Positions 24,573 through 64,000 of a stretch of DNA of 64,000 nt are shown piece by piece (the stretch's first letter is position 1; every line of letters begins with the position of its first letter). This stretch comes from Psilocybe cubensis (taxonomy: Eukaryota). The DNA is taken from assembly GCA_017499595.2 (NCBI GenBank), contig CM039009.1:2480001-2544000 (forward strand). The letters are read 5' to 3'. Under the pieces are notes generated by a model. That model did not search any database. It saw nothing but the letters and a program-made list of their open reading frames with translations, and was not told where the DNA came from. The position numbers were made by a program, and so were the translations under genes.

Positions 24573-24753
24573 TTTCTTGTCACAACTAAAGTGGCACGAA
24601 TCTTGACCCTATTACGATCTAATCTTATCAGCGCGTCCTTATCAGCGCACCTTTTGATCCCTTTCATTGGAATACTCCCCGCATATTGCTGGCTGCGGAC
24701 TTCTATTCCTCTTCATAAGGCCACTTTAACTATCTTATACACTTTCTACTACC

Positions 24754-43371: not shown

Positions 43372-44686
43372 ATGACAGACCTTCCTATAGAAATTATCAA
43401 CACCATCATGGAGATCGCAGTCACCACTCTTGATCCCCAATCAGTGTCATCGATAACGCTCCTCTCACAACACTTCCGTACCATAGCCAACGAAAAACGC
43501 TACTCTCAGATTGGGTTCGACAATGAAAGCTTTTGGAACGACCTCCCCCAATTGGCAACTCTGATTGAGGAAGCAGGTGGATACCAAATACGTGGAATAC
43601 ACACATTTATCACCTCGCTCCATATCTGGATACCGGATAAATGCTATGCAGAAGCATTACTACCCTACGTTACAATCTTCAATCACCTATTCAAAGATGA
43701 TGCCATGCTGTGTACGCCTATTCGAAAGCTGTCCATTTCCGTGACCAACTTTGCAGCAGCGTTGTGCATATCTTCCCCCCTAGATGTTTCGCTCAGGTTG
43801 CTGTTCAGGAACTCTCACATCAACCTCTTGGAAATGTTTTCCGCAACAAATATACCTTATGACCTTCTACACGGGTCAAATATTGAACATCTGGTCCTTT
43901 CGTTCGTGGGTGGGTTGGCAGAATACACCATTGTTAAAAAATTGGATCCAGTTTATCTCAAGTTAATCTCAATTACAAACTCACAACTTGAAGTAGCCGA
44001 TCTCCTGGTATTACTTGGGATTCAGGAATCCATTGGTTTTACTTCTCTGATTTCTCTCACCATATCAACCCAATTTGTCTCATTCGCAACACAGCTACTG
44101 CATCTATCACATTGTCTGGAGACATTGACACTCAATTTCTCAGAGGAAGTGGCCTCAAGTAAGTCGTCTCTCTCCTTTCCATGTCCATCCATTTGAAACC
44201 GGTCTGCTAGGCGCACATAAAACTCCTAAAAAACCTGTTTTCAACTATGATTTGCTGCCTCATTTTAAGTGCCTTAACATACATCACCAATTGGGCGCAT
44301 TCCGTTATAATCAACCAGCACCGCCTACAATCCACCTGCTAGGATACTTGCTACCATTGCAACTCAAAAAGCTTTGCATAGAGATTAGATTTGAGGACAT
44401 AGTGAATAAAGCAGACCATGGCCATCTGCAGTTATCTGTTCTCCTTAATGATGCAGTCGCCTGGGATGAACATTTGTTGACACTGGTGTGCGGAACCATG
44501 CAACACCTCGTCGTACAGATCAATGCTCAGCTACACCGTCATTTCGAGTCGATAACATATGAATCACCGAACTGGAGAGATTACATACGGGAGAAATTTG
44601 TATCTGCCTTCCCGAGGTGTCGAGCTTCACTTGCGCATTTCTATGTGTCCATTGATATAACGTCGTCTGTGTTTATTTATGATTAG
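43372..44686 (+). CDS. F-box-like/LRR-like family paralog 4
   Basis: LPIEIINTIMEIA; intron 44159-44210 restores the frame into ...YDLLPHFKCLNI... Confidence 0.85.
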
Positions 44687-45201
44687 GGATATAGGGACAA
44701 AATAGAATAAAACCTACAAGTCATCTTTTGATGGGAGCTTTTAGCATTCGGAGTGTGATTTATAACTCCGTATTCAACTCACGAGTGACCTTAGGAGCCT
44801 GTATTATCTTTGGAAATTATGATAACCCTGCGCTGCGCACCGAGCCAGCTTTAGGAGTGCCGGGAGCTGCCACCGTACGCTTACGCACGCACACGGCCAG
44901 CTCCATAGACGACTATGAAGGCAAATATCACTAGCTTAGATGATATATATATCATAAATACTATACAATTCATGATAGTGTAACCACTGGCTCGTCGATT
45001 CAGATGGTATTGAGATTGAAGGCTGCCCACCGTACACAAACTTGAATCACAAACACAACCTCATTGATGGAGCGAGGTGAGTTTATTATCCAGTGCTTCA
45101 GGTTCCCAGAGATCATTGTATCCTTAATCTTCTCATTCTAGATACTTATTTTGAACAACATGAATGAATTAAAGAGGAACGATGAGAAAACATGAACAAG
45201 A

Positions 45202-46800
45202 TTATTTCTTGCTCCGGAAAAGTCCTATCGAGTGTTGGCCGCCGCATGATATGGCTGCAGCAAACCATGAGCCACCGTCTTTGCGCACTACAAGTTGTGG
45301 TGTTTCTGCTTCTTTCTTATCTCCTAGACCTAGTTCTCCTTGAATCCCCTGTCCCCACGAGTACAGTGCTCCTCCTCTTGTCACAGCCGAGTTGTTATGA
45401 ACACCACATGATATCTGAACGACTGGATCGCCAGGATCTGGGAAAGAAACCAGCACAGGTTCCGAAACAAAGTCAGGATGTGTCCTATCGTTGAAAGTCG
45501 GGTGGTCAGCAGGAAGTACAAGTTGACCACTGTCTGAACGACCACATGAATAGACCTTCCCTGATTTCAGTAGGAATAGAGTATGGTGGTAACCTCCGGC
45601 AATTTGAATCACAGAGTCATTACCAAGCATTTGTTTGCTCAGCCTCTGAATCTTCTTGGGCAGTTGCACGACAGAGTCCTCTGACGAAGCATAGCCTGTT
45701 CCCGTTTGGCCCATGCTGTTCAGTCCCCATCCCCAGACGTCGCCTGTCTCGTCAACAGCAAAAGAATGAAAGTTTCCAGCGCCGACAAGAGTAGCCTTGC
45801 GAGTTTGTGTTCCAAGAATGACTTTCTCTGGTACTGTGCCATGAATCTTATGACGCTCCAAGACCCTTCTTCCTAGTTCATAGTCCTCTCCAGCTCCCCA
45901 AGAGTAGATGTGTCTGTGCGTTGTTAGCACAAGCAGGTGGTTATCTCCTGCAGCGATTGAGGAGACCCTCTCAAAATCTCCAGGTCTACGGCTAAGTTCT
46001 AGAATGGGCACAGGCTTAAATTGATGTCGAAGTCCGCTGGAGAAACCGAGAGATCCTTCATTGGCCTAAATTGGTTATAAAATGAGCTTATATGATAAGA
46101 AACTTCCTCTCATTGAATTGATGGCGAAGTCTGCTGGAGAAACCAAGAGATCCTTCATTGGCCTAAATTAGTTATAAAATGAGTCATAAGAAACCTCTCA
46201 CATTGAAGACCTACTCGGAATGAGCCCCACACTCGTAATTCACCTTTGTCGCTGACTGCGGCGCAAATATTATCACCAGAAGCAGCCTTAACAGCACGGA
46301 AACCCTCGTCAACCAGTGACTGCAAGGGATGAGGCACGGCGCTTAGATCGTCAACGCTCAAGAAGGAACCGGGATTTTCACGGTCCGGAATGCCTTGGGT
46401 GATTCAACCAAGGGCAGCGTCATCGTTCACGCCGCAAGTCCAAATCTAGATATGATGAGCAGTGTAAGAAACTAACAATGTGATGTGCAGAAAATAGTCA
46501 TACTGTTCCCCTCTCATCAATGAAGATGGTATGCATACCACCGGCCACGACAGATTCAATCCCACCATTGTCATCACCGAACACATCATTTTCCATCTGT
46601 TTGATTGCCCAAGCATTTTTCTTGGGTTTGGAAAAATCACCGAGAGCATCAGCACCCATTCCTAGCTGACCAAAGTTTCCTGCACCCCATGCAAAGGGAA
46701 CTAGCCCCGGTCGATGATGTTGAGGAGGGGAAGGCAGCTGATTAAGATAGGGCACGACTTGTACATGCTGCGTTGCCTGCATTTTGCCGACCGGTAAAAA
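45202..46800 (-). pseudogene. RCC1 (Ran GEF; Pim1/Prp20-like) beta-propeller pseudogene
   Basis: RCC1 repeats (AWGAGNFGQLGMG, VVAGGMHT, IAAGDNH, YSWGAG, WGWGLNSMGQTG, IAGGYHH, ISCGGQH); in-frame TGA at 46404-46406 (LG*IT, expected LGRIT); ~97-bp tandem duplication of an intron/exon junction; N-terminus not evident. Confidence 0.8.
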
Positions 46801-47124
46801 TTTGGGATTTGAAGCAATTTAATGGTGCTGGATTTTTACTGCATATTGTGGTCATGATATAGAGAAGTGGGGGATGTGCTACAATGGATGGAGGTTGGGG
46901 CATCAACTTAAATAATATTTCTTTGCCGGACATCAGAACCGATGGGAAACCAACAGCCAAGAATAGTACGTGACTCACGGATTCTGGTTGCACCGCCCTT
47001 AAGCTTCATAGGCTTTCTCTTTCTATCGCCTGCTCCCCCTTCATTCATTGTGTGAGGAGATATTTACATTTCTGGAGACATGCCCTCACTTCTGGTACTA
47101 ATTTGCATTGCAAGGGTACAAGAA

Positions 47125-47816
47125 GGGCACTGGAAAATGTCAGTGCAATGTCAGTGCGGTCAGTGCATGTCAGTGTATACCACAGTAATGTCAGTGCAAT
47201 GTCAGTGCAGACTGCAGTGATGTCAGTGAAATGTCAGTGCATGTTTCCAATAATCTATAAGTTGGTCATGGTGTGTCAGTACATGCCTGTGCGTGCAGGG
47301 TTATGTTAGTGCATTGGTTAGTTCATCGTGATGGTGTGGTGGCAAAATTTACCAGAGGAAACTCATACAGTCTACTTACCTAAAATTGTGTTCTTCATTT
47401 GAAATAAAAGATAACATGATTATAAGGTAAAAACTATGTCAGTGCATCGTCAGTGCACCATTAATGAAGGTCAGTGTATGTCAGTGCATGTGAGTGCACC
47501 GTCAGTGCATGTCAGTGCAAAGTCAGTGCAATTGCTTGGCGGTCAGTGCATGTGTCAGTGCATCAACTCTTGGTATTCAGTATAGAGATAATTCTAGGAG
47601 GATAGTAGATTTCTAGACACTTATAATACATTCAAAATCCGTCTAAGTAATCCTGCACTGAACACAGTTTCATTTTATATAAGTACAGACTTCAACTTTT
47701 TCACAAATCCTAAGTGATGTCAGTGCATGTCAGTGCATAGACATTATATTGTCAGCGCATGTCAGTGCCGACGTGCACTTACATGCACTGACATGCACTG
47801 ACATTTCTTGTTGCCC
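47125..47816. mobile_element. Mutator-like (MULE) non-autonomous element/MITE, 692 bp
   Basis: 9-bp TSD GTACAAGAA (47116-47124 and 47817-47825); GGGCA...TGCCC termini with imperfect TIRs; many internal ATGTCAGTGC repeats, inverted at the right end. Confidence 0.85.
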
Positions 47817-47999
47817 GTACAAGAATAATGCAGTTTGATCATACTGTTGCTGTTTTGTGATGATTCTTATGTCGTCAAAGATCCTGAAGGGTATTCTGAA
47901 CAAAGATGCAACCGACCTTTGTAAGTCCTCCGCGGACCCTAAGACCATCCCAAATTATGTCCTCAATTCGGAATTTGATCCAGCGCCGGTAAAAATGCT

Positions 48000-49230
48000 A
48001 TATATGCAGCAAACAGTCTTGAAAGGTGTCATCCGCTATCTGCAACTGTACCACCATATTGCAATTTTCAGTTAAGACTCAACATGTTGTAATCAGTGCA
48101 AATCTTAATTCATCGATGCTTCATAATTTATTGCTGGGTGACTATCCTTCAAACTCGCCAGGAAAACTTTGTCTTATTTAATTTGTCTAGGAATCTATAC
48201 ATCTCTGTATGCTACCACAGTATATGTTTATTGTTTGTGATCCGCCATATAGAACAGCGAGAGATGCATATATTGATAGAAGGTTCAATTATTTACAGGG
48301 AACAGAAGTCGGATTGTCTTGGGAACAATATCCGCGCTCTATTTATTTAATTTTATAAACTTTGTTGACCAGTGGTATTCTGTCAATTGGACCTTTATTG
48401 TCGACACAGATACAGAGAATTCGGTCTTTTTGTCATTTTTGGAATCACCGCAATGGGTCAGTGTAGTGACGAGTCTGACACAGTGCATGCTATTTGTTGT
48501 TTCTGATGGGCTTCTGGTCTGTACCATATAGCTGAGGTATGCGAAGGGCGAGAAAGTACTGAACTTTCCACTACAGATTTGGAGGTGCTACCATTTATGG
48601 GGACAATCCATAAGAATTATTTCAATTCCTTCCATGTTGCTATTGGCAGAACTCGGTACGTGTTTTCCTGGTTCTTTTCTTAGGAATCAACGACTCTTAT
48701 AAATGTCCTCTATAAGGGATTGCTATACCTACCCTAATCTACCCCTCCACTGTCTTTCAACCCACCAGCTTAAATTTCACCACAGGAAATAAATTAGCAT
48801 GTACGCTATCTCTCGTGTCCCTTTCCACCACCGCAACTGTGACGTTTCTGATTGGATACAAGATACACATTGCTTCTAGAGGCCTAATAGGTTGAGCGAG
48901 GATGCAATATCAACATATTATCGTGATCCTCGTTGAATCATCTGCCTTTTATTCATTGGTAATGCTTACTGAAGCTGTAATCAATATTTTCCCTGTGTTT
49001 GGATTCCTGAATCCTTCTTGGTGTGAAGGAAGCTATTATAACACCACTGCTATAGTCATTGCTGCGGTACGAGTTTTATTGATTTTGTATGCCATAATAC
49101 CTCTTGACAAATTTCAAGGGGCTCACGCCAACTATTATGGTTCTGCAAATTGCTGTTCCCCACCAGAGCAATGACCTCTTGTATGATACAGCACAAACAG
49201 ATCTGTAACAATTGGTCATATGTATGCTGT
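48000..49230 (+). pseudogene. Agaricomycete multi-pass (7TM-like) membrane protein, degenerate
   Basis: Motifs VSDGLL|IWRCYHLW...IP..LL.AE and ILVESSAFYSL; in-frame TGA at 48893-48895 (IG*ARMQY). 5' boundary approximate. Confidence 0.6.
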
Positions 49231-50070
49231 TAATCAAGGAAATAGAGTGATATATCATTCAATTTATCATCAAAGTGGTGATGCCATCTTTGATGTGTCT
49301 TTTGTTGTTACCACTATGGATTGTTGATCCGTACCATGGACACCACTCAAACCACACCCTCATAAAATATACCTTTGGAAAGAAAATTTACTGCTCAGAA
49401 CATAATTGACTAGATAAGCATCTATATCCTTCACCTGTGCAGAAATAATTATCTATGGTATATTTAAATACCTTATGATGCGTCACGGGCCATGCCCGTT
49501 CAAAAAAAAACAAAATCCCTTCCGCGGCCCCAGTCCCATACTACTGCTCATCAACATCAACCACAAGTGCAACGGCCATAATGACGAGCAGTACAAGGGC
49601 CCAGGTGGGCACAGAGATGGTGTAGGAGGGCAGAGGATGATAAAACTCACTGGACTTTGTTTAAACATCGGTCTATGACATAAAAGGGCTGTTTAATCCC
49701 ACGTGGGGTTTAAACCATGTTCATTCAAGTCTCTCTAGTCTATTTTGAACCATGTACTAGTTAGCTCTGAAATCATATACGGTTGGTGTACAAAAAAGTA
49801 GTCTATTAAAACAAAAATGACATAGAGACAAAGTAAAGTTAGAAGCATTCATCGCTGTTTAAACACAATCGACAATTAAACAGTCCAAAAAATTAAGCAA
49901 TGTTTAAATGAACTGGTAAAATTAAACAGCTACAAAGGAATAAACAATGTTGAAGACGACAGAGAAGATTAAACAGCAACCACAATTAAACGCTTTTTAA
50001 ACCTGCGATGGATTCAACAATGTTTAAAACTAAGATACAAATAAACGATGTTAATTGGGGCGAGGTGGAT

Positions 50071-53000
50071 TCAAGATGGCTTTTCCGGAGACGAAACTGG
50101 CTCCATATACCAAGTGTCCCTAAGCTTGCGCTTTTTGGGTGGTGGAAGAGAAGGATCTGTGACAAGCGCAGGTCCCAATGCAGCTTGCGTGCGCGGGCGG
50201 CCCGTACGTCGTACAGCTACAGGTGGTCCCTCCGTCCTAACTCTCTTTTTGGGCTTCTTCTTCGGTTTGATAGTGGCAGTGCTTGCAGCTGTGGTGGTAA
50301 TATCATCACCGGCACCCTGTTTTGCAGAGTGGCCCTCCTTGGAGGCCGGAGAGCCTGCCGCCGATGGTCCAATGACAGTTTGAGGAACATTAGAGGACAC
50401 ATCTGTGTGTTGCATTGGAGGAGAGCATGACGGAAGAGGAGTCATGGGCGATAGTGAAGAAAGCAATGCACGAGGTAGTGTTTTCGGAGGTGGTGTTGAA
50501 AAACTAGCAGCCTGGTCAGAGGTAGGTGGCAAAAGTGAAGGGCGAGATTGAGTCTTCGCAGGTGGTGTCAAAAAATGGGCAACGTTAGTCAATCTTGATG
50601 GTGAAGGTAAAGTCCCCGAAGGTGATGCATCATCGTAAGAGGGCGAGTGAGAACTTGGAGAAGGCTGCAATTTCTGTAACTCTGCTTGGCGCTGATGCTG
50701 CGCTATGCGGTCTTTCGAATAAAATTTGAACGGCGTGGCATCAGGTAGCAAACGCAGATATTTGGTTAGAGCCAGAATTTTGTCGGGTTCTAGCACTTGC
50801 GGGGACTTTAAGGCGCCTATTGGTAAATTGAATGTCTCTGTGTCGTAGTACATATCAGGGTTGGAATAAATCGCATCCCAGGGGATGGTCGCATCGCCAT
50901 CTTGAGTATAGTCTATCGCAAAGTAAGTCAGTAAGGTGTTTACAAATGCTCCAAGATTGACCTACGCCAGAGAGACAGAAAATAATCTTCGAGAATTAGA
51001 GCTGCAGACGATAGCGGTTGACCTTTCAAGTCAATAAATGGCAAGAGAGGGCAGCCGTTGGTGTCTCGCAGCAACCTAGTGCTGAGTTGGAGTTCTTGCC
51101 CTACAAAGGTTTGTCAGTATATCACAAGTAAATGACGACTAAAAGAATACCACTCACGAGGAAGAACTGACTTGGCATGATTGTTCCAGCGTTCCAGTGA
51201 AGCTGTATCATACTCAAATTTGCCATCGTCTATCAAAGCTCCTTCGTTGCTGTCGAATGCCGCGCTGACTTTGCCTCCAAAAATGTTGCCGCCTTTGCGA
51301 AATGCATATGATAGGGATAATACACATGAGCCGAGCTGTCCGCCGGTGAGCAGTCCTTCGAGGGCTTCCTGAGCCACACTGTCAAACTCTGCTCGATTGC
51401 TACGAAGCATTGTCAGAACGTATCCTAAACAAGCAACATTGACTTACGCATCAATATCATCCCTCATATGTCTAACCTTTTCCTCCCAAGCCTTGTGATC
51501 TTCTTTCGACCACAGTTGTTGAATTGCAATTTGACGAGCAGCTCCTCCAGGTATTCCCCGTTCCTGACTGATTTGGCGGTATAACGCCACAATTCTATCG
51601 TTGTTTTCGACAACAAAGTGGTCTCAAGGGGTGGCATTTGAAGAGAGTTGGAGAAAAGGAGTCTTGGCCATGGATATAGTAGGAGTTTTTTGTAAACCCT
51701 TTTTCCCTTGCTTGACCTTTATGTCGTAGTTGAAGTGATTTGTCCACACACGTACTATGGCCTGACACGAATTGTAAGTAAGTCATAAAGAGAATTCATT
51801 CTACATACCGATGACCACTGTTTGAGAGTCTCGGTCTCGGATAACTTGCCCGCAAAAATCTCCTCGGCGAGTAGAGAGTTGACAGTTTTGGCTTTCCAGT
51901 CTGATAGCTGCTTGCAGTGACCGCGCCATTCAGGATCAAGCTCCGCAACCTTGGCTCCGAATGCAGGTATGTATTCCTTGATGCGCGCCATCTGGGCATC
52001 CGAGAAAACGAATCTGGTGGCTTTGGCAGGCGAGTGGTACCTACCATCTTTTTGATAAAACAATAGCAAGTGTTAGCACACTCTTTTTATAACTGTTGAT
52101 GGTTTTATCACAAAGCAAAATAATGAGAAGACTGGTCTATTTCTCATAAGTTTACTTCGCTTTTTCAAAGCCTTTTTCATTAGATAATACCCTTCTTTCT
52201 CATTATCTTTAGGGCGCTTTTTCATTACCTTTTGATTAGATACTAGCCTGGTTATTTGATAAGATTGTTCTACATCAATATATCTTATCTTTGCTTGGTC
52301 ATTTCTGATGCCATGCCATCAAATCAGGAACACTGTGGGTACTTCTAGGCCATGTCTATCAATCCATCAAAGCTATTATTAAATAAACTTTTCTCTCCTC
52401 GGCCCCTTGGTCTATAAATAGTGCTCATCCTATGCTACTTTTGTGCATTGCTGGCAATGGATTGGGCGCTTTTGGGGGCATTTCTGGACCGTTTCCCTTG
52501 GTGTTTTTTGGTAGACCTATAGTTTTAAAGTGTCCCAATCTGAATATGAAATTAGAATTGCAATATCTTTACTCATTATTGTGCAATTAAGCGTACGATG
52601 TTTTGATCAAAAAGCGCACCTTGAATAGCACCATCCAGGGGCTGGTATGCACCATTTTGACTATGCAATTATTTTTCATTTATAATAGACGGAGTACATG
52701 CCAAGTTTCAGATCAATTGGAGCAGTGGAACCTATTGAACTAGGATGTGCACCCTACCCCTCCTCCTACTCCTTGTACAAATGCCTTCCTGATCAGATAA
52801 ATTTATGCCCAACCAGGGCTGGGTAGGCGTCCATTATACCAATTTTTAGAGCCCAAAATCTTGGTGCAATTCTAAGATTTAAGGGTACTACCCCCCATCC
52901 TCTCCAGAATTTGTATATTTTATTATGGGGTAGAATGGCCATTCCCAGCACATATAGGTATGTAAATCTGCTCTATATAGTACCACAGACGCAATACATA

Positions 53001-54950
53001 TCTTTGAAGCATTCAGAGTGAAGGGGAACACCTTGGTTATGAGGCTAATAAAAAGGTATTGGATGTACAACATAATATGACCATATCACCACTTATACTT
53101 CACCAAAATGCACATATCTTACATTCACAGATAGCTACTAAGGTCTTCTACATATTATATTCATACTGCCAAATGACCAGAACGCTTAACAAGATGGTAC
53201 AAGAAGAAGAAGCATTGTTGTTCAAAAATGGAGGAAAAGCGAAATATGATGTAAAAGATAACACTTATAAAATACATAAACTATACGGCTGTGTAGCCCT
53301 AAATGACACCTATCTGTGGTATATAGACTCATGGAAATCCGATGAGTATGAGCTGAGATATGTCAAAATGTATCTCGGAGAAAGGCCAAAGAGGTGACCA
53401 CAAACAAAGCATAAATAAAGGCCAATATCCATCCGGGTCTCTGATGGGTTCTTCAACACCTTTCTTTCCATATCTCAGCAACCACTGGTCCGATGCACAA
53501 CATCCTTAATGTTCTGGAAAGCTGCATTTTGAGGCTATACTATCCTGCTTTTATATTTCCTGATCATAATCATTTATATATGGTAAATGCGAAAATACTA
53601 TGCATTTTGATGAAGAATGGTATTCCCTCTGCAGCATCTCAGCTAATGGACGGATCTTTTTGCAGCCTAAGAAAGATATTTAGGGGGCAACTATAGGTAT
53701 CTGTAGACGTCAAGAATATGATTTATGACAATGTATTTGTAGAGATATGGCCTGATCAATAACCTACCATACCTATCCTCATACCCCCCCTTAAATCAGT
53801 ATGTTCCCTTGTTGAAGAGGGCTTTTAAGGGTAAATTTTGGACTCTATGTACTGTTTGTAGTGGATCTACATGTCTTTCAATGGTCTGAGAGCCCATCCT
53901 ATCCCATAATAAAATACACAAGTTCTGGAGGGAGTAAGGGGTAGTACCCTTAAATCTTAGAATTGCACCAAGATTTTGGGCTCTAAAAATTGGTATAATG
54001 GACGCCTACCCAGCCCTGGTTGGGCATAAATTTATCTGATCAGGAAGGCATTTGTACAAGGAGTAGGAGGAGGGGTAGGGTGCACATCCTAGTTCAATAG
54101 GTTCCACTGCTCCAATTGATCTGAAACTTGGCATGTACTCCGTCTATTATAAATGAAAAATAATTGCATAGTCAAAATGGTGCATACCAGCCCCTGGATG
54201 GTGCTATTCAAGGTGCGCTTTTTGATCAAAACATCGTACGCTTAATTGCACAATAATGAGTAAAGATATTGCAATTCTAATTTCATATTCAGATTGGGAC
54301 ACTTTAAAACTATAGGTCTACCAAAAAACACCAAGGGAAACGGTCCAGAAATGCCCCCAAAAGCGCCCAATCCATTGCCAGCAATGCACAAAAGTAGCAT
54401 AGGATGAGCACTATTTATAGACCAAGGGGCCGAGGAGAGAAAAGTTTATTTAATAATAGCTTTGATGGATTGATAGACATGGCCTAGAAGTACCCACAGT
54501 GTTCCTGATTTGATGGCATGGCATCAGAAATGACCAAGCAAAGATAAGATATATTGATGTAGAACAATCTTATCAAATAACCAGGCTAGTATCTAATCAA
54601 AAGGTAATGAAAAAGCGCCCTAAAGATAATGAGAAAGAAGGGTATTATCTAATGAAAAAGGCTTTGAAAAAGCGAAGTAAACTTATGAGAAATAGACCAG
54701 TCTTCTCATTATTTTGCTTTGTGATAAAACCATCAACAGTTATAAAAAGAGTGTGCTAACACTTGCTATTGTTTTATCATAAAAAGTGGTAGGGACTAGT
54801 GGGCAGGCATGAAGTCAGTCTAGTAAGTATACGTTGTAAGAAGGATCAGAGGTAGGGTAGGGGTCTGTACATACATATATAATGAAAAGTTATGACACCC
54901 TGCGCTTTGCCAGTGGCCTGATTAATCTCGAAATGACCAGTTGTGGCCCA
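50071..54950 (-). pseudogene. KDZ-linked gene A: multi-exon hypothetical protein (..IPWD.I..NP..YYD...LP...LK.P), split by the inverted-repeat insert
   Basis: Exons in ORFs 51755-52040, 51114-51410 and 50071-50853. Removing 52040-54791 gives an open frame (LTSCLPTSP|YHSPAKATRF). Start codon not located. Confidence 0.6.
52053..54779. mobile_element. AT-rich foldback-like insert with 842-bp inverted arms (52053-52894 and 53938-54779)
   Basis: The arms are equal in length and identical where spot-checked; about 100 bp more of degenerate inverted similarity lies inside; ~1-kb spacer with no recognisable ORF; AGTGGTA duplicated at 52033-52039 and 54785-54791. Confidence 0.85.
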
Positions 54951-55077
54951 TAATTCAGTAATGAGAAACGTTCTGAAAAGAATAGTATTCATCAGTGAAT
55001 GGCACAGGTGGCCCAAATAGCCACTCGTACCAGTGCCTTAGAAAGTACACAACGGATCTAAAGGGCCACCAAAGGAA

Positions 55078-55414
55078 GCACCTGACGCCAAGTCGAGGTT
55101 GCGAGACCAACACAGAGTAAGGGCGGTATTGAGAGCGATGGTGATGAGAAAGATGGGGGTGCTGAAGCAACCTACGCAGAGTCGAGGTTGCGAGACCGAC
55201 ACAGAGTTGAGGTCGAGCGATGGTGATGATAAAGATGGGGGGTGCTGAAGCAACCGATGCATAGTCGAGGTTGCAAGACCGACACAGAGTCGAGGCCTCA
55301 TGAGCATGAGTAGGTATGGGCGGTATTGAGAGCGATGGTGATGAGAAAGATGGGGGGTGCTGAAGCAACCGACGCATAGTCAAGGTTGCGAGACCGACGC
55401 CAAGTCGAGGCCTC
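55078..55414 (-). repeat. Hairpin array 1 (about 4 paired units), upstream of gene A
   Basis: Minus strand units GAGGCC-TC-GAC-TTGGC-GTC-GGTCTC and GCAACC-TY-GAC-TATGC-GTC-GGTTGC, separated by pyrimidine-rich spacers. Confidence 0.85.
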
Positions 55415-55643
55415 ATGAACATGGTGGTTGAGTGGTGAGTGGCGGGATGAAGGGTCGCATTACCAAATCGGACTCAATCATGTGACCTGCACCCCCCAAG
55501 TCCAACTCAGAGTTGAACTTCGAGTCCGCCGTCTTTGCCCACTTTATTCCCCCTCTGCTTTTGCTCCTCATCGCCCGCCCTTCTTTTGCCCCCTTTACTA
55601 TTAACTGTACAACCAGGTAAGTATTTAGATTTTTAATTTTCTG

Positions 55644-55837
55644 TGGACTCGACTTAAGGTCGTCCATGTGAACTCGACTATGCGTCGTTCACTTATTTTT
55701 TCCATTTACTTTTTATGGACTCGACTTTATGTTGTCCATGTGAACTCGACTATGCGTCGTTCACTTATTACTTCCGTTTACTTTTTATGGACTCGACTTA
55801 ATGTCGTCCATATGAACTCGACTATGCGTCGTTCATA
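55644..55837 (+). repeat. Hairpin array 2 (3 x 72 bp), upstream of gene B
   Basis: TGGAC-TC-GAC-N5-GTC-GTCCA followed by GTGAAC-TC-GAC-TATGC-GTC-GTTCAC, with T-rich spacers; units start at 55644, 55716 and 55788. Confidence 0.9.
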
Positions 55838-55888
55838 CATTTTCCCCCGTCAATCCAATGGATAACCGACACCGGATCCAGCAGAAAA

Positions 55889-58076
55889 ATGTCTCGCTGT
55901 ATCACCCCTGAAGACCTGCTTAAAGATCCATCGATCCTTCTTCGAAAGAAAGGCCATGATTCCTCCGAGGGTGAGTTTCTGTTCTACAATTTCCAGTCTT
56001 TTTATCTATACTTTACCAGGTCTTTGCAGTTTTGAAGGCCAAGTTGGAGCCGTAGTGTGGGAAGGAAGTCATTTCGTTACAAGCCCGAACATGGATCATA
56101 TCTGGGAGCCCCCCAGAGTATCCCGGATTACTTACATGGAGGATATGCGGTACGGAGAACACGATCCCCTTCAATGGCCCCAACCCTTCATTGGGAGTTT
56201 TTGCTATCTTGCCGCCATTCGTCGAAGGCCCGACGATCTTCGTGCAATCAATCGATTTTTTATAGTGTTTTATCGCTTAGAAGATTCTGACTTACTTGCG
56301 CAAGAAGGGGTTCTTAGCGGACTGTATACCTTGACTCCCCAATTGGTCTCCCTAGCAAAGAACTTTGTACAAAACAGAGTTATTGCAAAATCGAAAGAAT
56401 ATGAAAGCCAGGATGACGCACCCAAAAACGACATCTTGTTGAAGCTCCAACCGTCGATCCTTCGAACAGTCAATCATCTCGAAAACCTCCCAATGACATG
56501 ACGAAAAATAAAATTCTTATTTGCCGAACTACAAAGATATTTTCTGGAATTTACAGCCGCCTTTGAATACCTGACAATCTATCTCCCCAGGATCAAAGGT
56601 ACTATGCCAGCTGCCACGGCGGCTAATAAAAAACTCATTGGTGCTTTTGTTCAAACTGCGGCGGATGCGGACGACCTTTTCCGAGCGGGTATTCCAGTGT
56701 GGGTGATTCGTGAGGCCAAATGGGCAGGGAATGACCGTGTAGATTCGTTGTGCGAGGTACAGAAACCACAGGATTATCTTTGTCTGGACAGTGCTTTTTT
56801 GCATTTTTGAGTGGATTATCGTAACTCGTTGACCAGCCCGAACAAGTATATCACTTTCGGTCGATTCGCACGAGGCTTTCTTTCATACGGGGATGCATAT
56901 AACCTGCGAGCGTACGAAGCTCCCATTCCGCAATCGACCGGTTCAGAGCAGACCTCGTCAACCTTTAAAATAGGTCCTAGAGTGGCCACGAGCCGCGAGA
57001 TCAGAAAATCAAAACAGCCGTGTAAGTCGCAATTCGTTTGAACATGAAGAAATTGTACCTCATTTATTACGATTATAGATCCTATACCACAGAGGCAGGA
57101 TTTCTCAGAGCCGGTTAGTGTCTACTTACCACCATCTCAAGAAGCATGGGCCTTGGGGCTTTGCAAAATCAACACTGATGCCAAGAGGTCGCTCCTGGTC
57201 TCTCGTTCTATGGCTCAAGGTGGATACATTCTGCCTAACCCTGAAGCCTTTATCGGAGTAACGACATGCAACAAGCGCGAGTTATACATCACAAACTGGC
57301 TGAAGTACCGCTCGGCCCTCATGTATCGCCTTACAGAAAGCCAGGGACGGTGTCCACTGAGTAGTCAACTGTGGCGAGATCTACTCAGACTCCCTGTGGA
57401 TGCTCTCCCGTCTACTATAACTTAACCAGCCGCCACGGCATCGTCGTCGACAAGCACCCGAACATCTAGTAAAAGTTCTCAAAGGGGTGAGATTCTACAA
57501 AGAATTTTCGAAAACTTTGACTTTCATGCATCCGGAGTTGCAGTCAATGGTCACAAACACCAGGTCGCGTGGCGAGGTCAAGCTCTGATAAAGGGCCAAG
57601 AACTGGATATAAACCTAGTACGAGAGGTGCTCTGGGAGTTATCAGAGCTCAACTTTTGGTTTGATCTCATTGCGTTGGACCATCATCTTTATTGTAGGAC
57701 CCTCAAGGTTGAAAGAGAAGGCCAAATTCTCCAGTCTCGTGAAGACGATATTCTCCTTTGTTTCGCAGGTGGGCCCTTGGGCACATCTCCATTTCTCGCA
57801 CACATCGCCAATGCGGATATCGGCATTGCCGCTGGTGATTGGATGGTTCGTCGCGCATACATCATATACCTGCAGAATGCCATGCGAGACTGGGAGGGTT
57901 TTGACTCCGCGGCCAAGCAGTGCCATGAAGTAGATCTGTTCACCAGATCTTCGGATATTTTATCTTTTGCGGAACACCAATATTTGCTCTTTGAGGTTGT
58001 ACTGGTCCGACTTTTTATTCAGCTTTTCTATGATGCATTTGGTCGTGCGCCCGTCATACCACGTCGATTACATTGA
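55889..58076 (+). pseudogene. KDZ-linked gene B: Agaricomycete hypothetical protein (DPL.WPQ...; LWEL.ELNF.FDL.ALD...FGRAP.IP), three in-frame stops
   Basis: ATG 55889; introns 55971-56019 and ~57022-57078; a single reading frame broken only by TGA 56499-56501, TGA 56808-56810 and TAA 57423-57425. Confidence 0.75.
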
Positions 58077-58348
58077 ACTTGTACTGTTATTGTAGCTAAT
58101 TTTCTTGAATTTTTTGGACCTTACAAGTTTTTCAATATATGTATTACCTTTTTTACCTCTATAAACATCAAGCTGTTGATTTTGGACTCAAATCCCAATC
58201 AATAATGTCTAAATAAGGCCGATCGAATATTTGTTAGAATGTTGATTGAATTTCGTCCATGACCAAAATCGGAACAAAAGCGGAGTTTCAATTTTGAAAT
58301 CCCTCGTTGCCATGTCTTTCCACTTTTCGTTCTCATCATTTTCCACAT

Positions 58349-58769
58349 TGACCTCGACTGTGTGTCGGTCGTGTAGGCTTGACTGTGCGTCGCCTACTGT
58401 CTGCTCTTCTCGTCATACTTGCTCTTTTCGCCATACTCGGGCGCTCCTCATCCTGGGTCCTGTCCTTCCGCCTTTCTCTCTGGTACCCCTGGCCATTGGT
58501 TTTCAAACATCCCCTTGACCTCGACTTTGTGTCGGTCGTATAGGCTCAACTTTGCGTCGCCTAACATCCCCTTGACCTCGACTGTGCGTCGGTCGTGTAG
58601 GCTTGACTGAGCGTCGCCTACTGTCTGCTCTTCTCGCCATACTCGGGCGCTCCTCATCCTGTGTCCTGTCCTTCCGCCTTTCTCTCTGGTACCCCTGGCC
58701 ATTGGTCTTCAAACATCCCCTTGACCTCGACTATGTGTCGGTCGTATAGGCTTGACTTTGCGTCGCCTG
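58349..58769 (+). repeat. Hairpin array 3 (4 paired units), upstream of gene C
   Basis: TGACC-TC-GAC-N5-GTC-GGTCG followed by RTAGGC-TY-GAC-N5-GTC-GCCTAC; units near 58349, 58515, 58572 and 58722. Confidence 0.9.
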
Positions 58770-59024
58770 CTACCTACCTTTCTCAAATAGGAACTCGGCG
58801 CCTTTCTCCGCAAACTTCTCCAAATGGCCAGGCCACGCTTTGTTGGTGGCCGCGACTCTTCAAACTTGGCGCAAACTTGGCGCAAACTTCTCTAGTTGGT
58901 TAGGCCACAATTCGTCGGTGGCCACTATTCTTCAATATTATGCAGTGGCATGATGGGAGGGGTATACGGACACGCAGGTGCGTGTTTAAATTCAAAGACA
59001 CACTGGCCATCCCACTAATTCTTT

Positions 59025-60195
59025 ATGCCTCCAGCTCCTCCTCCTGCATCGTTTGGACCTCTCTCTGGTGCGCATCCTGAGTACCGGGGGATCTACAAAA
59101 CCGCTGCTTTGGAGAAAGTGAAACAAAACATCAAACTCTTTCTGTTACAACACACCAAAAACCCAGGACCGCAGAAACCTCACAAGCCTGACCATCCTGA
59201 ATCTAGACCCCAACTTTGTCTCGGGGGTGGATCCCATCGCGCTAATGCTGGACGGTGGCTTCAAGTTTGCCAGAAGCAATCGTGCTATATGCATCAACGA
59301 CCGCGGTTTGTTACCGAACCTTTATCACCAGAGGTTTTGTCTGGACTTGATGCCCTGTTTGCCATTCAAGATGAAATTCATGCGTATATGCCACGTACCA
59401 TGACATCAGCTAACAACCCAGTTGCTTGACCATGTGTTGCTTCACCATCATCTTCCTTGCCCCCTTCGTCTGCACCCAGCGCGTCCCCTGCCTTGTCCCC
59501 TTCGCCTGCGCTTAGCTCGTCTCCTTGTAGGCGCAATAGGGCCGTACCGGCTGTTTTCTCCACACCCACATCACAACCCTCTTCCTCCAAGCGTCGTCTG
59601 TCGCCACCGCCTTTCGCATCAACTTCGCAAGCTTCATCCTCCAAGCGTCCTCTTTCGCCATTGCCTGAGCCTGACCGTGTTTCCCCTTTCAAACGACGTA
59701 AAATTCTTGATGTATTGGATGAGCTACCACCACCTAACGTGCCTCAAGGTATAGACGAGGCGGAAATACGGCGCCGAATCAATATCTTGCTTGATGCCCT
59801 TGAACCTGCGGCTGCGCCAACTAGCCCCCCAGTAGCACCTCCTGCACGGTCTCCCCCCACGCCTGAAGCAGTAGACGAGGCAGAGATATTTGACCTTACT
59901 CAACCGGTTCTTGTTTTATTTATGTTGCAGGTTGGGTTATTGCTTTATTGTTTTATAATTCAATGCTAATTCATTGGAATAGGATCATAGTCAATTTGAA
60001 GAAACCCTTTACCCGTGCCATGATGGTCGCCTCTGTCTGAACGACTACAAGCTTCTTCTAGGACGCCAGGGGTTTGAACAAGGTTTATACATTGAGTATT
60101 TTTGCTTCAACACAGATGAATGGACCCCTTGTCTGTGGGCCACCCGGCACCTGATCTCAGGCCACGATCAAATTTTGCGATTCTGTTATGCATAG
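59025..60195 (+). pseudogene. KDZ-linked gene C: N-terminal Cys/His cluster (GRF-zinc-finger-like NAGRWLQVC....C), Pro/Ser linker and C-terminal domain; one in-frame TGA
   Basis: ORFs 59025-59429 and 59457-59930 share a frame across TGA 59427-59429; intron 59931-59982 leads to the last exon (DHSQFEE...W.PC.WAT). Confidence 0.6.
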
Positions 60196-60440
60196 TGGCC
60201 AGAACTTAGAATATAATGAATATATCTGCTTTTACAAATTCCCTTGGTGACACGATTAATTCTGCCGATTCCTTATTATAGGCGTATGCTTGGCCACCAA
60301 TGCCCAAGCAAAATGTATTGACTGAGTGGTGGCATGACCACAAAATTGCCGATTGTGGCACTTTGGGATGTAGGATGGCATACATCAACTGAAAGTACAA
60401 TAAACCTTTCCTCTTTGCCAATATTTTGCCCCCACCCGTC

Positions 60441-63400
60441 ATGAAGCTAACCGCCAAAACACTTTTGAAGCGCCGCGCGCAACAAGAAGCCGAAAACGAG
60501 AGCCCTAAACGCCTCCGACCCACTGCACCTCATCTCACGGAATATACCTGTCGAAATTCAACTTCTATTACCCATACAACTATTCTTGCCGACAACGGAC
60601 ATATACCTTCTCTGCAGTCCAAGGAAAAGGTTGAGGCCAAATTACCTCCCAGTGTCTCGGAACCTCCGGCTAAGCCTTTGGAGGTTGGTTGTTTTCACTT
60701 TGGAATTTTCCTGGTGCAACGTTGCTAATTAATATTGTGCACAGCTTACTGAGGAGCTTCAAGCATTCCAGGATAACAAAGACGAACTTTTAGACTATCT
60801 TTTTGAGCGAGAACACCATCCTCTCATTGGAACACCCTGCCAATGTGGTCAGGAAACACGTTTAGTCTGCTGCACGGAATGTCTGGGACACAATGCCACT
60901 TGTCGTCTCTGCTTTATCGCCGCTCATCTCTCAATGCCATGCCACTGGGCTTTGGTTTGGAAAGAAGGGGAACACGGTGGATTCTTTGTGAAGCGAGACA
61001 TATCGCAACTTATTCCAGGTGGCAATTTTGCCATCCCTCTTGGTCATGGAGGTCTTCGGTGTCCGGGCCCAGAAACCGAAGAAGAAAACATGTTCTTCCA
61101 GATAATTGACCACAATGGTGTTCACGATACTCGCATGCACTTCTGTACATGCCTTGGCCGGCCAAATCGTGTACGGCAACTCATCCAGTTCGGTTTTTTC
61201 CCTGCGACACTCAAACAGCCAAAAATGGCATTCACACTCACAGTCCTCAAGCAATTCCACCTGCACCATCTTGAATCAAAGGAATCAGCTTACGATTTTA
61301 TTGGGGCTCTTCGGCGGCTGACCGATAACATGTTTGCAGCCAGTACCACCAATCCTTATCCCCAATTTCTACGGGTAATGCGCTTTTGGCGTGTTTTGAT
61401 TGCTACAAAACGTCTGGGTCAAGCCCACGGTATTGACCAGTTGCTTCCTCATCGGCCACCAGGCAATCTGCTTGTGTTTTGTCCGGCTTGCCCCGAGGCC
61501 GGGCTTAATATGGAGAAGAATTGGGACCAGACACCTAAGGAATTCAGTCATTTAAACCAGATGCAACTTACCCTCGACGGAAATTTTCACGCCAACAGAT
61601 ACAACAAAAATAGTTCTGATGACAATTATTCATTATATGAAGGACGTGCCTACTATCCCACTGATTCCGATTTTAAATCTTATCTGCGTTCTTTACCTGC
61701 TCAAGACATTGCCGACAAGATTGATTGCCCTATCAAAGCTGTGAAGAATCGCAATCTTGTTATGGAGAATCTTTCGGAGACGGGTATAATCAATGTTCAG
61801 TGCCCACATGTCATAGTTGTGTCAACTGTGGATCTTCAACGTGGTGAAAGATTTGCTAACACAGATTATGCTGTGGCCCTGGCGCTCCGCCGGATTAGAG
61901 ACACAGGAAAGAACAACAGTGACCAGTATCTTACCTGGCTGGCAGCGTGGATATCGTATGACATGGTGTGCTCTTACTGGGTGAACATTGTGTCACGTTT
62001 CAAAGTCTACTTCCCTGATCTGGTCGAAATTGTCAAACGTCTTTCGTTTTTAATTCCCCTTGTTCATGTTCATAATCACAAAGAGAATTGTGAATACCTT
62101 TATTCATCTGCGTATCAATCAGGCGCGGGACATTTCCATGGCGAAACAGCAGAACACGAATGGGTTGAACTTAATCAATTGGCACCCCAAGTCCGTCAAA
62201 TGAACAATGGCCATCGTCAAGACACCCTGATTGACCACCACGGGGATTGGAATTTCAAGAAAATGGCGAATATGGCCTCGTCGCTAGAGACAGACATTGT
62301 CCATTCCCGGAAGATTTTTCACAAAAAACGCGATGACTTTATTGGAAAGACAGCACTGTATTCGGATCGTGCCCCGTTATGGAATTGCCTTGATCGTGAA
62401 CTGAGAACGGTTAGCGCAGACAAAGAGATTCAGTGCGTATTCCGACACAAGACAGGAAAAGGTGAGCGATAATCAGCTCGATATTTAACATATCTCATTC
62501 TTGCAGTTCCTTCTCAGGCCAAAATATACGAAGGATTGGTTGACAGATTGAAGAAATTGGCCGACAAATCAGACAACACATTTTTGAACATGGAAAGTTC
62601 TGTACGTCTAATCAATGAGGGCATTATCATTGAACGAAAACAGTATGTGGTTTATATGTCCATTTATAAGCATCTCATGAGTAAGATAGACAGGAGTTGG
62701 CGTCAAAATTAGCATCTGAGGAATATCCCATGGCTCCGAAGGAAATGCTCAGTCATCGTACCAAGCTAGCCAAACTTATCAAAGGATGGAAGACTCTGCA
62801 GCAGGATGTCATGGGCACTGCTCTGTGTAGTGTGGAAACTTCGTCAATTGATAAACCAGAATGCGCAAAACTCTATCTTCCATCTTCATTCTTGGCTACT
62901 GATCGTGCAAAATATGATCTGGAAGGTCTTGCGGCAGACGAGCTTCTCTTACGGAAAGGAAATATCTTTGATACCATTTGCAACATTCAAGATACATCAA
63001 AAACACTATCCTTGATGCGTACTGAGAGGCAACAAAACGACCGTGGACAGACTGCTCGGACACGGTCAAAGTCGAAATTAGAAGATGTAGAACGCCTTCT
63101 AAGCCTGCAAATCCACATATATAATCTCTGTCGGCAAGCTCTTGTGTCCCTAGGCGGTGATGAATACTCCAGCATGTTCCCAGAAATGACTGTAGCCGAC
63201 ACGTACTGGGTACCTACCCATCTTCGACGTGAAATTGGTACGTCAAGAAAGTCAGATGGTCGGATATTCAACCCGGGTATTACTGGCGGGGCGCAAGGGA
63301 GAGCTCCGGGTGTGTCTAATTATCTTGAGTCCACCATGGATGTGATACAAACACAAGGGTCCAAACCCAAACCTAGGAACGACAAAAAGTTGGGCAAAGA

Positions 63401-63941
63401 CAAGAAAGGCACTAATTGTGGTTCTGGCATATCTCCCCCCAAAAACAATGAAAAGGTCAAGAAAGATGGATGGATTTGGTCGCTTGCGGAGCTAGTGAAC
63501 TTGACGCCTGAAGATATCGAGGCCTGGTCCGATGAAAGTGATCGGGTCAAATGGTTTCATGCAGAAGCTGAAATGCGACGTTGGCAAGAAGAGAACAAAA
63601 TCAACCAAGCACAATTTTTACGATGCATCCGTTCATTCCACGTAATGTCCAAGCACTGGACACAACTGGCGAAGATGAATGCTACTGACCCCGGCCGTGT
63701 GGCATATGCAAAAAAAATGTCGGCTCGGTTTTCTCGGTTGGAAAGTGATGCGAAAGAGCGCCTTGTGCGAGCAGGATATCGAGGTTTTTTAGGGTTTAGG
63801 GGGGGAGCGAGCACCGAGCGAAGCGAGGTGCGAGCGACTTGTTTAAACTGTGAGTTAAATGGAAAGAAGGCCAGAGGGCTGTTGGGGGGTACCAACAACC
63901 AGCCCTTTCGTCTTTATAGACTCTTCAGTGGCTATTCTTAG
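60441..63941 (+). CDS. CxC2-KDZ (Kyakuja-Dileera-Zisupton, Kyakuja-type) transposase
   Basis: C.C...C..C...C..C...H...P.H, CxC2 (DHNGVH...FC.C, QL...FFPAT...P..AFT), KDZ core (CPACP, LDGNF, C.H, DLQRGERFANTDY, SYDMVC, HVHNH...C, GE..E..W). Introns 60684-60744, 62462-62506 and 62643-62689. No internal stops; sequence after ~63781 may be foreign. Confidence 0.93.
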
Positions 63942-64000
63942 AAGGAATGTTCTAGACATCCGATGACAGCGCGTGAAGTGATGCTGTGCAGTTGTCATGT

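Follow-up and report, generated by a model that had tools for sequence, protein, structure and literature searches.

A 64-kb window of the Psilocybe cubensis genome (assembly GCA_017499595.2, contig CM039009.1, positions 2,480,001–2,544,000 of the forward strand; all coordinates below are those of the window) carries a KDZ (Kyakuja-Dileera-Zisupton) DNA transposon in which the upstream regions of three genes contain arrays of one structured repeat. The repeat is a 57-nt module formed by two bulged hairpins, and 11 modules, corresponding to 22 hairpins, are grouped in three arrays, one before each of gene A (minus strand), gene B and gene C, which encodes the KDZ transposase. The module has a strong polarity and covarying stems, and it also occurs upstream of an unrelated capsid-like gene on a metagenome contig. 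The reading that we tentatively prefer, at somewhat less than even confidence, is that the arrays constitute a structured cis-regulatory module that is read on the sense transcript. An earlier note, made from the letters of this DNA, had described three arrays in these places and on these strands with about 20 copies of one bulged fold, and all seven outer-stem pairs that it listed are present. The arrays and the region between the first two are as follows.

55074–55417, minus strand: array 1, four modules upstream of gene A (56–72 bits) at 55361–55417, 55246–55302, 55163–55219 and 55074–55130, the last one decayed; outer stems GAGGCC/GGTCTC (one G:T pair) and GCAACC/GGTTGC.
55418–55639: central divergent region between arrays 1 and 2.
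55640–55840, plus strand: array 2, three modules with a period of 72 nt (about 69–74 bits) at 55640–55696, 55712–55768 and 55784–55840; outer stems TGGAC/GTCCA and GTGAAC/GTTCAC, with ATGAAC/GTTCAT in the third copy.
58345–58774, plus strand: array 3, four modules between the gene B stop and the gene C start (67–71 bits) at 58345–58401, 58512–58568, 58569–58625 and 58718–58774; outer stems GACC/GGTC and GTAGGC/GCCTAC.

Modules consist of a hairpin a and a hairpin b with a core-to-core distance of 25 nt in 11 of the 11 window modules, so that all modules align without gaps. Each hairpin is formed, from 5' to 3', by an outer stem of 4–7 bp, a 2-nt bulge on the 5' side, GAC, a 5-nt loop, GTC and the second arm of the outer stem. 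The bulge reads TC in 14 hairpins and TT in five, with other letters in decayed copies, and the loop adopts the consensus T-N-N-G/A-Y. The spacers between modules are 73–83% pyrimidine on the sense strand, which, with the fixed phasing, bears out the earlier description of adjacent hairpin pairs separated by pyrimidine-rich spacers. The conserved core contains two to three CpG, and the observed/expected CpG ratio is 1.26 in modules versus 0.55 in spacers; these ratios bear no clear mark of methylation decay or protection.

The arrays are located about 50–680 nt upstream of start codons, with array 2 ending about 50 nt before the ATG of gene B, and the modules are oriented in the sense of the downstream gene in all four known arrays (three in the window and one on the metagenome contig). 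Outside the modules, the upstream regions of the three genes have no mutual similarity. The three window arrays are internal to the KDZ element, at 5–9 kb from its presumed left end. The claim that an array lies upstream of every KDZ-linked accessory gene stands for the positions, which include all three genes, but not for the wording, as gene C is the transposase and not an accessory gene.

The repeat was compared with chance expectation in several ways. The core pattern TYGAC-N5-GTCG, allowing at most one mismatch, has 42 matches in the window compared with 20.1 ± 4.4 in shuffled sequences, and 0 of 100 shuffles reach 42. All 15 matches with zero mismatches fall inside the arrays, and nine of the 42 fall outside. 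A covariance model (R1) was built on 13 modules, 11 from the window and two from the metagenome contig L001, and run unfiltered on both sequences. The training modules score 54–73 bits and the next match 8.5 bits (E 0.86). On the antisense strand no match exceeds 8.5 bits, and it is this difference from the sense scores that makes the module strongly polar. Neither the pattern scan nor the unfiltered model found module copies elsewhere in the 64-kb window, the stretch in which single dispersed copies of the kind left by a hairpin-shaped, MITE-like mobile element were looked for.

Standard base pairs occupy 90.0% of the 221 cells in the 13-module alignment, as opposed to 28–49% when the partners are slid by 1–3 columns, and both sides have changed in nine of 17 pairs. 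The covariation score is 0.431 versus 0.195 ± 0.024 in shuffles, none of which (0/500) is as high. The copies within an array are tandem duplicates, and the independent evidence amounts to four arrays with eight hairpin types rather than 26 hairpins. When each of the four arrays is represented by one consensus, seven of the 17 pairs have two Watson-Crick types that differ on both sides, all of them among the 11 outer-stem pairs; the compensatory covariation proposed in the earlier note is thus also found at the consensus level. Outer stems of different arrays are on average 0.48 identical, compared with 1.00 for inner stems, 0.83 for bulges and 0.57 for loops. Within arrays, 23 unpaired columns have accumulated 41 changes, and 34 paired columns 23 changes. 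In two recent cases a double change is exactly compensated, namely a G:C to A:T replacement on both arms of the third copy of array 2 (A2.3) and an A:T to G:C replacement in the inner stem of the second L001 module (L1.2). The one-sided stem changes comprise three G:U and five A:C. Several are transitions at CpG, which is what the neutral decay of a dead copy would produce.

Selection acts on base pairing in the outer stems, and on sequence in the 2-nt bulge, in the inner stem (GAC/GTC) and at loop positions 1 and 4. The upstream regions of genes A, B and C have one structured element in common, as the earlier note had supposed, with a pairing constraint and a conserved bulge, inner stem and set of loop letters. 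The structured repeat is real and statistically solid, on an evidence base that is narrow at four arrays.

Some further sequences were observed near the arrays. A solitary decayed hairpin of 6 bits is found in the central region at about 55497–55520 on the minus strand (AAGTTCAAC-TCTGA-GTTGGACTT); its CGAC/GTCG inner stem has apparently become CAAC/GTTG, the pair being retained by both changes. A tandem repeat of CAAACTTGGCG in 2.6 copies (58861–58889) has the string ACTTGGCG in common with the loop and 3' stem of some hairpins, namely the first hairpin of array 1 and the b hairpins of L001, and may be a relic of decayed modules. The motif GGCCAC/GTGGCC, which is clustered in the stretches that separate the arrays from the ATGs of genes A and C, has 13 of its 34 window matches at 54913–55069, 58831–58925 and 60138–60297, and forms two GGCCAC-N9-GTGGCC hairpins at 58831–58851 and 58903–58923.

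A second locus was found by scanning metagenomes with a 39-nt degenerate double-hairpin pattern of about 21.5 specified bases, which returned a single contig, L001, of 2027 nt. The same pattern gave 0 matches in 596 Gb of prokaryote genomes, and viral contigs scanned with two double-hairpin patterns gave 0 matches as well. L001 holds two modules with the same a–b order, 25-nt phasing, a 74-nt period and a pyrimidine-rich spacer, and their outer stems are new yet complementary (ACGGA/TCCGT, and CTAGAA/TTCTAG with its register shifted by 1 nt). The modules are positioned about 515 nt upstream of an open reading frame (ORF), in sense orientation. This ORF has nothing in common with genes A, B and C, the modules are all that L001 shares with the window, and the 2-kb contig has no KDZ gene.

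The L001 protein has no match in Pfam and no sequence match in the PDB, and a search for it in viral contigs returned nothing. It contains a Cys-His knuckle, and its family carries DUF4100 downstream of the part that is present in L001. The predicted structural model has a pLDDT (predicted local distance difference test) value of 68, with residues 20–190 mostly at 70–90, and most of its top 30 structural matches are retroviral or retrotransposon capsid (CA) proteins. The best match is PEG10 CA (Z 8.4, root mean square deviation 2.6, 83 residues aligned), and the Copia capsid (Z 8.1, 160 residues aligned) and dArc1 (Z 7.9, 158 residues aligned) are comparable; the Z values are middling and the theme is uniform. 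A language-model look-up of the protein pointed likewise to a capsid. On its predicted fold, the ORF matches a capsid (Gag)-like gene of a retroelement. The presence of the module before an unrelated Gag-like gene implies that it has no fixed link to KDZ elements or to proteins A, B and C, and that a binding factor would more likely be of host origin or shared between elements than KDZ-encoded. The link to KDZ elements and the element-encoded binding protein of the earlier note are therefore unsupported, and the finding is less KDZ-specific and less clearly RNA than that note proposed.

In the mechanism that we propose, the arrays would represent a portable, orientation-dependent cis-regulatory module of Agaricomycete transposable elements, the unit of which would comprise two bulged hairpins and, after them, a pyrimidine-rich spacer, with two to four units 5' of a transposon transcription unit. 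A single hairpin-binding protein would read the folded single strand through contacts with the bulge, the inner stem and the loop, and the outer stem would be needed merely as a helix. The simplest carrier would be the sense transcript, with the arrays in the 5' leader or, for gene B, in an intron of the 5' untranslated region (UTR); in the retroelement the carrier would be the leader or the U3 region. Binding would set the expression of all three transposon genes jointly, akin to Tat and the trans-activation response element (TAR) or to the iron regulatory protein (IRP) and the iron-responsive element (IRE).

The position of array 2 is consistent with this arrangement. The plus strand before the array contains a pyrimidine-rich tract and a consensus donor CAG|GTAAGT (GT at 55617). 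The next usable YAG acceptors are two CAG at 55879–55884, 5–10 nt before the gene B ATG, and the only YAG in between is a TAG located 9 nt into the candidate intron. Array 2 could thus be placed within a 265–268-nt 5'-UTR intron or within the 5' UTR itself. This argues for a leader placement, and TATA-like boxes at three of the four arrays argue against it. In the window, these boxes are the following.

54875–54881, minus strand: TATA-like TATATAT followed by a pyrimidine-rich stretch, 65–71 nt upstream of the gene A ATG.
58963–58967, plus strand: TATAC downstream of array 3, about 62 nt upstream of the gene C ATG.
58984–58991, plus strand: TATA-like GTTTAAAT, about 40 nt upstream of the gene C ATG.

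The corresponding sequence of L001, TATA-like TTTAAAAA, follows the last module by 37–44 nt and precedes the ATG by about 470 nt, a spacing that one would expect of the U3 region and leader of a retroelement. These features were read by eye and are weak evidence of a putative function.

Several points weigh against a module that is read on the transcript. The carrier strand, the protein binding and the co-ordinated regulation are what we infer from the arrays, and their transcription is putative. TATA-like boxes and pyrimidine tracts are situated between array and ATG in gene A, gene C and L001, at positions that fit arrays upstream of the transcription start, and co-operative binding to duplex DNA would likewise fit a phasing of exactly 25 nt. 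The earlier argument from G-U pairs holds insofar as some mismatches are G:U-compatible, but A:C mismatches are at least as common (five versus three) and G:U is not in excess. Both strands fold equally as RNA and as DNA: RNA folding z values are −5.1 for the antisense and −3.8 for the sense strand, and DNA folding is symmetric between strands, with modules at −10 to −12 kcal/mol as single-stranded DNA (ssDNA). The predicted RNA hairpins have −5 to −12 kcal/mol each, with the exception of decayed copies. Because the strands fold equally and G:U is not in excess, only orientation singles out RNA or the sense strand. A search of 54700–59200 against Rfam 15 detected no family, the sole match at E≤5 being mir-654 with 20 bits (gathering score 63.5) at 55433–55504, outside the arrays. 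Finally, the known arrays number only four, with eight hairpin types, and come from two loci.

The arrays may alternatively be an untranscribed promoter or upstream activating element, with repeated DNA sites for a host transcription factor or a transposon protein ahead of each core promoter, which we consider doubtful but serious. Recognition would then involve duplex CGAC-N5-GTCG sites or DNA hairpins extruded from underwound promoter DNA. The TATA-like boxes and pyrimidine tracts downstream of the arrays of gene A, gene C and L001, as well as the distances of about 50–680 nt to the start codons, are in line with such an element. Tandem repeats with fixed 25-bp phasing are typical of co-operative DNA sites, the CpG in the core could render binding methylation-sensitive, and the modules do fold as ssDNA. 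By contrast, a dimer that reads duplex DNA leaves the outer arms, which are complementary yet changing, without explanation. The strict sense orientation (4/4) is unneeded for an upstream activating site, and array 2 leaves only about 50 nt for both core promoter and 5' UTR. In addition, cruciforms form poorly from short, imperfect palindromes that have 5-nt loops and a bulge. Precedents for control from DNA sites exist within transposons: TnpA binds repeated motifs of Spm and regulates its own element (PMC2613891, in the part available), and transposases are reported to activate cognate copies (bioRxiv 10.64898/2026.08.24.746577, in the part available).

It is improbable that the arrays are a functionless, self-propagating quasi-palindromic minisatellite, the arms of which are kept complementary by template-switch correction and not by selection. 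The copies are indeed tandem duplicates, this copy of the element is dead with genes A and B broken, and templated correction of quasi-palindromes can yield compensated double changes. Correction of this kind, however, would not account for a 2-nt bulge that persists uncorrected in every hairpin type, nor for inner stems, bulge and loop positions conserved across arrays where the spacers have diverged beyond detection. Furthermore, L001, which is another element from another genome, has the same a–b order, 25-nt phasing and orientation, and paired columns are less variable than unpaired ones.

The ORF at 60733–62472 matches Pfam KDZ (7e-46) and CxC2 (3e-29). The host element is a KDZ DNA transposon, with a KDZ-domain transposase and a preceding CxC zinc cluster. 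Its features outside the arrays are listed below.

49659–50028: cluster of the motifs (T/A)TTAAAC and GTTTAAAC, just 3' of the gene A stop.
50071–54810, minus strand: gene A, accessory gene of unassigned family, with its ATG at 54810–54808, about 265 nt downstream of array 1.
55889–58076, plus strand: gene B, KDZ-linked accessory gene of about 660 residues, a pseudogene with three in-frame stops.
59025–63783, plus strand: gene C, KDZ transposase with CxC2 and KDZ domains at 60733–62472; it probably starts at 59025, where the first ATG stands 256 nt downstream of array 3.

The ATG of gene B at 55889 is backed by an alignment with homologues. Four word-based matches are about 26% identical over the full length, and a profile search retrieved 3372 representatives at E≤0.001, which form a large uncharacterised fungal family (P0047 and others). 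In one fused gene model (P0158) gene B is followed by CxC2 and KDZ, so the order from gene B to KDZ recurs in another genome. Gene B has no Pfam family, and a search of prokaryote genomes with its alignment returned nothing. Its predicted model is confident (pLDDT 90.1); no Foldseek match was obtained at E≤0.001, and the only structural matches were to generic helical bundles with Z≤7.1.

Gene A is 99% identical to the N-terminal part of a named P. cubensis hypothetical protein, and this near-identical homologue is fused to a fungal kinase in its gene model. The gene has no Pfam family. It contains an in-frame TGA and is split after codon 3 by the insertion of a foldback element. An ab initio splice model of gene A was set aside, as it was wrong in places when compared with the named homologue. 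Homologues of the genes other than A come from Agaricales. With gene A and gene B both broken, this transposon copy is dead. Extra ORFs are also present in the KDZ elements of Cryptococcus, where they have no assigned function in the portion of the report available (bioRxiv 10.1101/2024.08.15.608186).

The foldback element in gene A comprises 2770 bp (52032–54801) with arms of about 935 nt that are 97% complementary, and is flanked by a 7-bp target duplication, GGCAGGC, at 52025–52031 and 54802–54808. Once it is removed, gene A regains the N-terminus of the named homologue, MPAKATRF. The foldback is matched by many contigs of other strains, which implies that it is multi-copy. It may be a non-autonomous element mobilised by KDZ, since 7 bp is the size of the target duplications of Kyakuja elements, which have CA..TG termini and no inverted repeats, according to the available part of PMC12730594.

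The motif cluster at 49659–50028 holds nine of 15 and five of 13 window matches of the two motif searches, and (T/A)TTAAAC recurs at 63841–63848, close to the right edge of the window. Contigs from other strains end at 63783, where many contigs pile up. The (T/A)TTAAAC repeats are probably subterminal repeats of the KDZ element, distinct from the hairpin module, and the element would probably span from about 49.65 kb, a left end placed by the repeat cluster, to beyond 64 kb.

These positions bear on whether the arrays could be a cis-signal for transposition, either as ssDNA hairpins, in line with the ssDNA recombination signal of the earlier note, or as internal binding sites of the KDZ transposase (an internal enhancer). 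Kyakuja-type elements are reported to lack terminal inverted repeats (PMC12730594, as far as its available part goes), so that they must have other recognition signals, and the hairpins do fold as ssDNA. We nevertheless regard such a role as very improbable. The arrays occupy internal positions, each linked to the start of a gene, and the presumed left end has a cluster of another repeat, which is found again towards the right window edge. Moreover, the transposase has KDZ and CxC2 domains and not HUH or Y1, and the module also adjoins a Gag-like gene with no KDZ gene on its 2-kb contig.

Contigs of four sequencing runs were compared with 44001–64000. DNA contigs cover genes A, B and C and stop at the arrays and at the foldback; the contigs over these genes in one run differ from the window at 13/2036, 23/2710 and 30/4198 positions, respectively. 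A run guessed to be RNA matched only one neighbouring host gene and a few short repeat pieces. A stretch of 701 bp at 47116–47816 is skipped by the contigs of three other runs, with a joint from 47115 to 47817, and is matched by many contigs; it resembles a small insertion that is multi-copy and restricted to this assembly. Copies in run X8 (labelled organism C) differ from 44001–64000 mostly by C>T (489) and G>A (523) changes, with the other transitions at 137–152, a pattern that suggests repeat decay by cytosine deamination in organism C, similar to repeat-induced point mutation. Elsewhere in the window, an uninterrupted Copia-type Gag-Pol ORF of 1576 residues (24730–29460) and a tnp2 (CACTA/Plavaka-like) transposase fragment (3800–5032) have no hairpin modules nearby.

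The hairpin module is apparently undescribed. No description of such arrays was found in full-text searches for the KDZ clades and for hairpin repeats of basidiomycete transposons, to which this statement is limited; the covered parts of KDZ papers report extra ORFs without predicted function and mention no regulatory repeats. The module bears on how the several genes of KDZ and other large fungal transposons are controlled, as the hairpin offers a handle for finding the regulator. It could also help to annotate the promoters or leaders of transposons in genomes of Agaricomycetes, and possibly provides a small portable regulatory part for fungal genetics. Speculatively, and with rather low confidence, mushroom-forming fungi may possess a new class of two-hairpin control element, used by KDZ DNA transposons and Gag-encoding retroelements alike, by which one hairpin-specific protein would switch gene sets together, perhaps at a stage of the life cycle.

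Among known systems, HIV TAR/Tat and IRE/IRP have the same layout as the module. All of them have a lower stem that is constrained in pairing only, a small 5' pyrimidine bulge, a short conserved upper stem and conserved loop letters, and the compensatory pairing together with the conserved bulge and loop is what this type of element displays. The TAR of HIV-2 consists of tandem hairpins, and IREs are present in several copies in some mRNAs. The module differs in having up to eight hairpins per gene in fixed pairs, and in residing in a fungal DNA transposon and a retroelement; it has no Rfam or sequence match, is known here at the level of DNA, and lacks the strand signature in which G:U is tolerated and A:C avoided.

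The likeness to the TnpA sites of En/Spm (CACTA) elements resides in short CpG-containing motifs that are repeated many times upstream of the genes of the element (PMC2613891, available part). As in the autoregulation of Spm by TnpA, the arrays could confer co-ordinated and possibly methylation-sensitive control. The Spm motifs, however, are subterminal, defined by sequence and present in direct and inverted orientation, with no covariation in stems, whereas the arrays here are internal relative to the inferred element ends, have one orientation per array and are constrained in structure, with a different repeat at the presumed end. Imperfect DNA hairpins, sometimes arrayed and with covarying stems, are likewise found in IS200/IS605, REP/RAYT and the 3' hairpin of Helitrons. 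Those systems require an HUH/Y1 enzyme and have the hairpins at element ends, in contrast to the KDZ/CxC2 transposase of this transposon and its genes A and B, which are without a Pfam family.

The hairpins of L001, with an exposed loop G upstream of a capsid-like gene that encodes a Cys-His knuckle, resemble the packaging stem-loops of retroviruses and retrotransposons, but the module also stands upstream of three genes in a DNA transposon without any Gag. A plain palindromic operator in duplex DNA, which the earlier note had named among the cases that would overturn its proposal, does not correspond to the sequence either: the outer arms are 0.48 identical between types yet complementary, the inner stems are identical, 90% of cells pair, and the 2-nt asymmetry is constant. 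The module has the full defining features of none of the compared systems, and it would represent a rare case of compensatory stem evolution upstream of eukaryotic nuclear genes.

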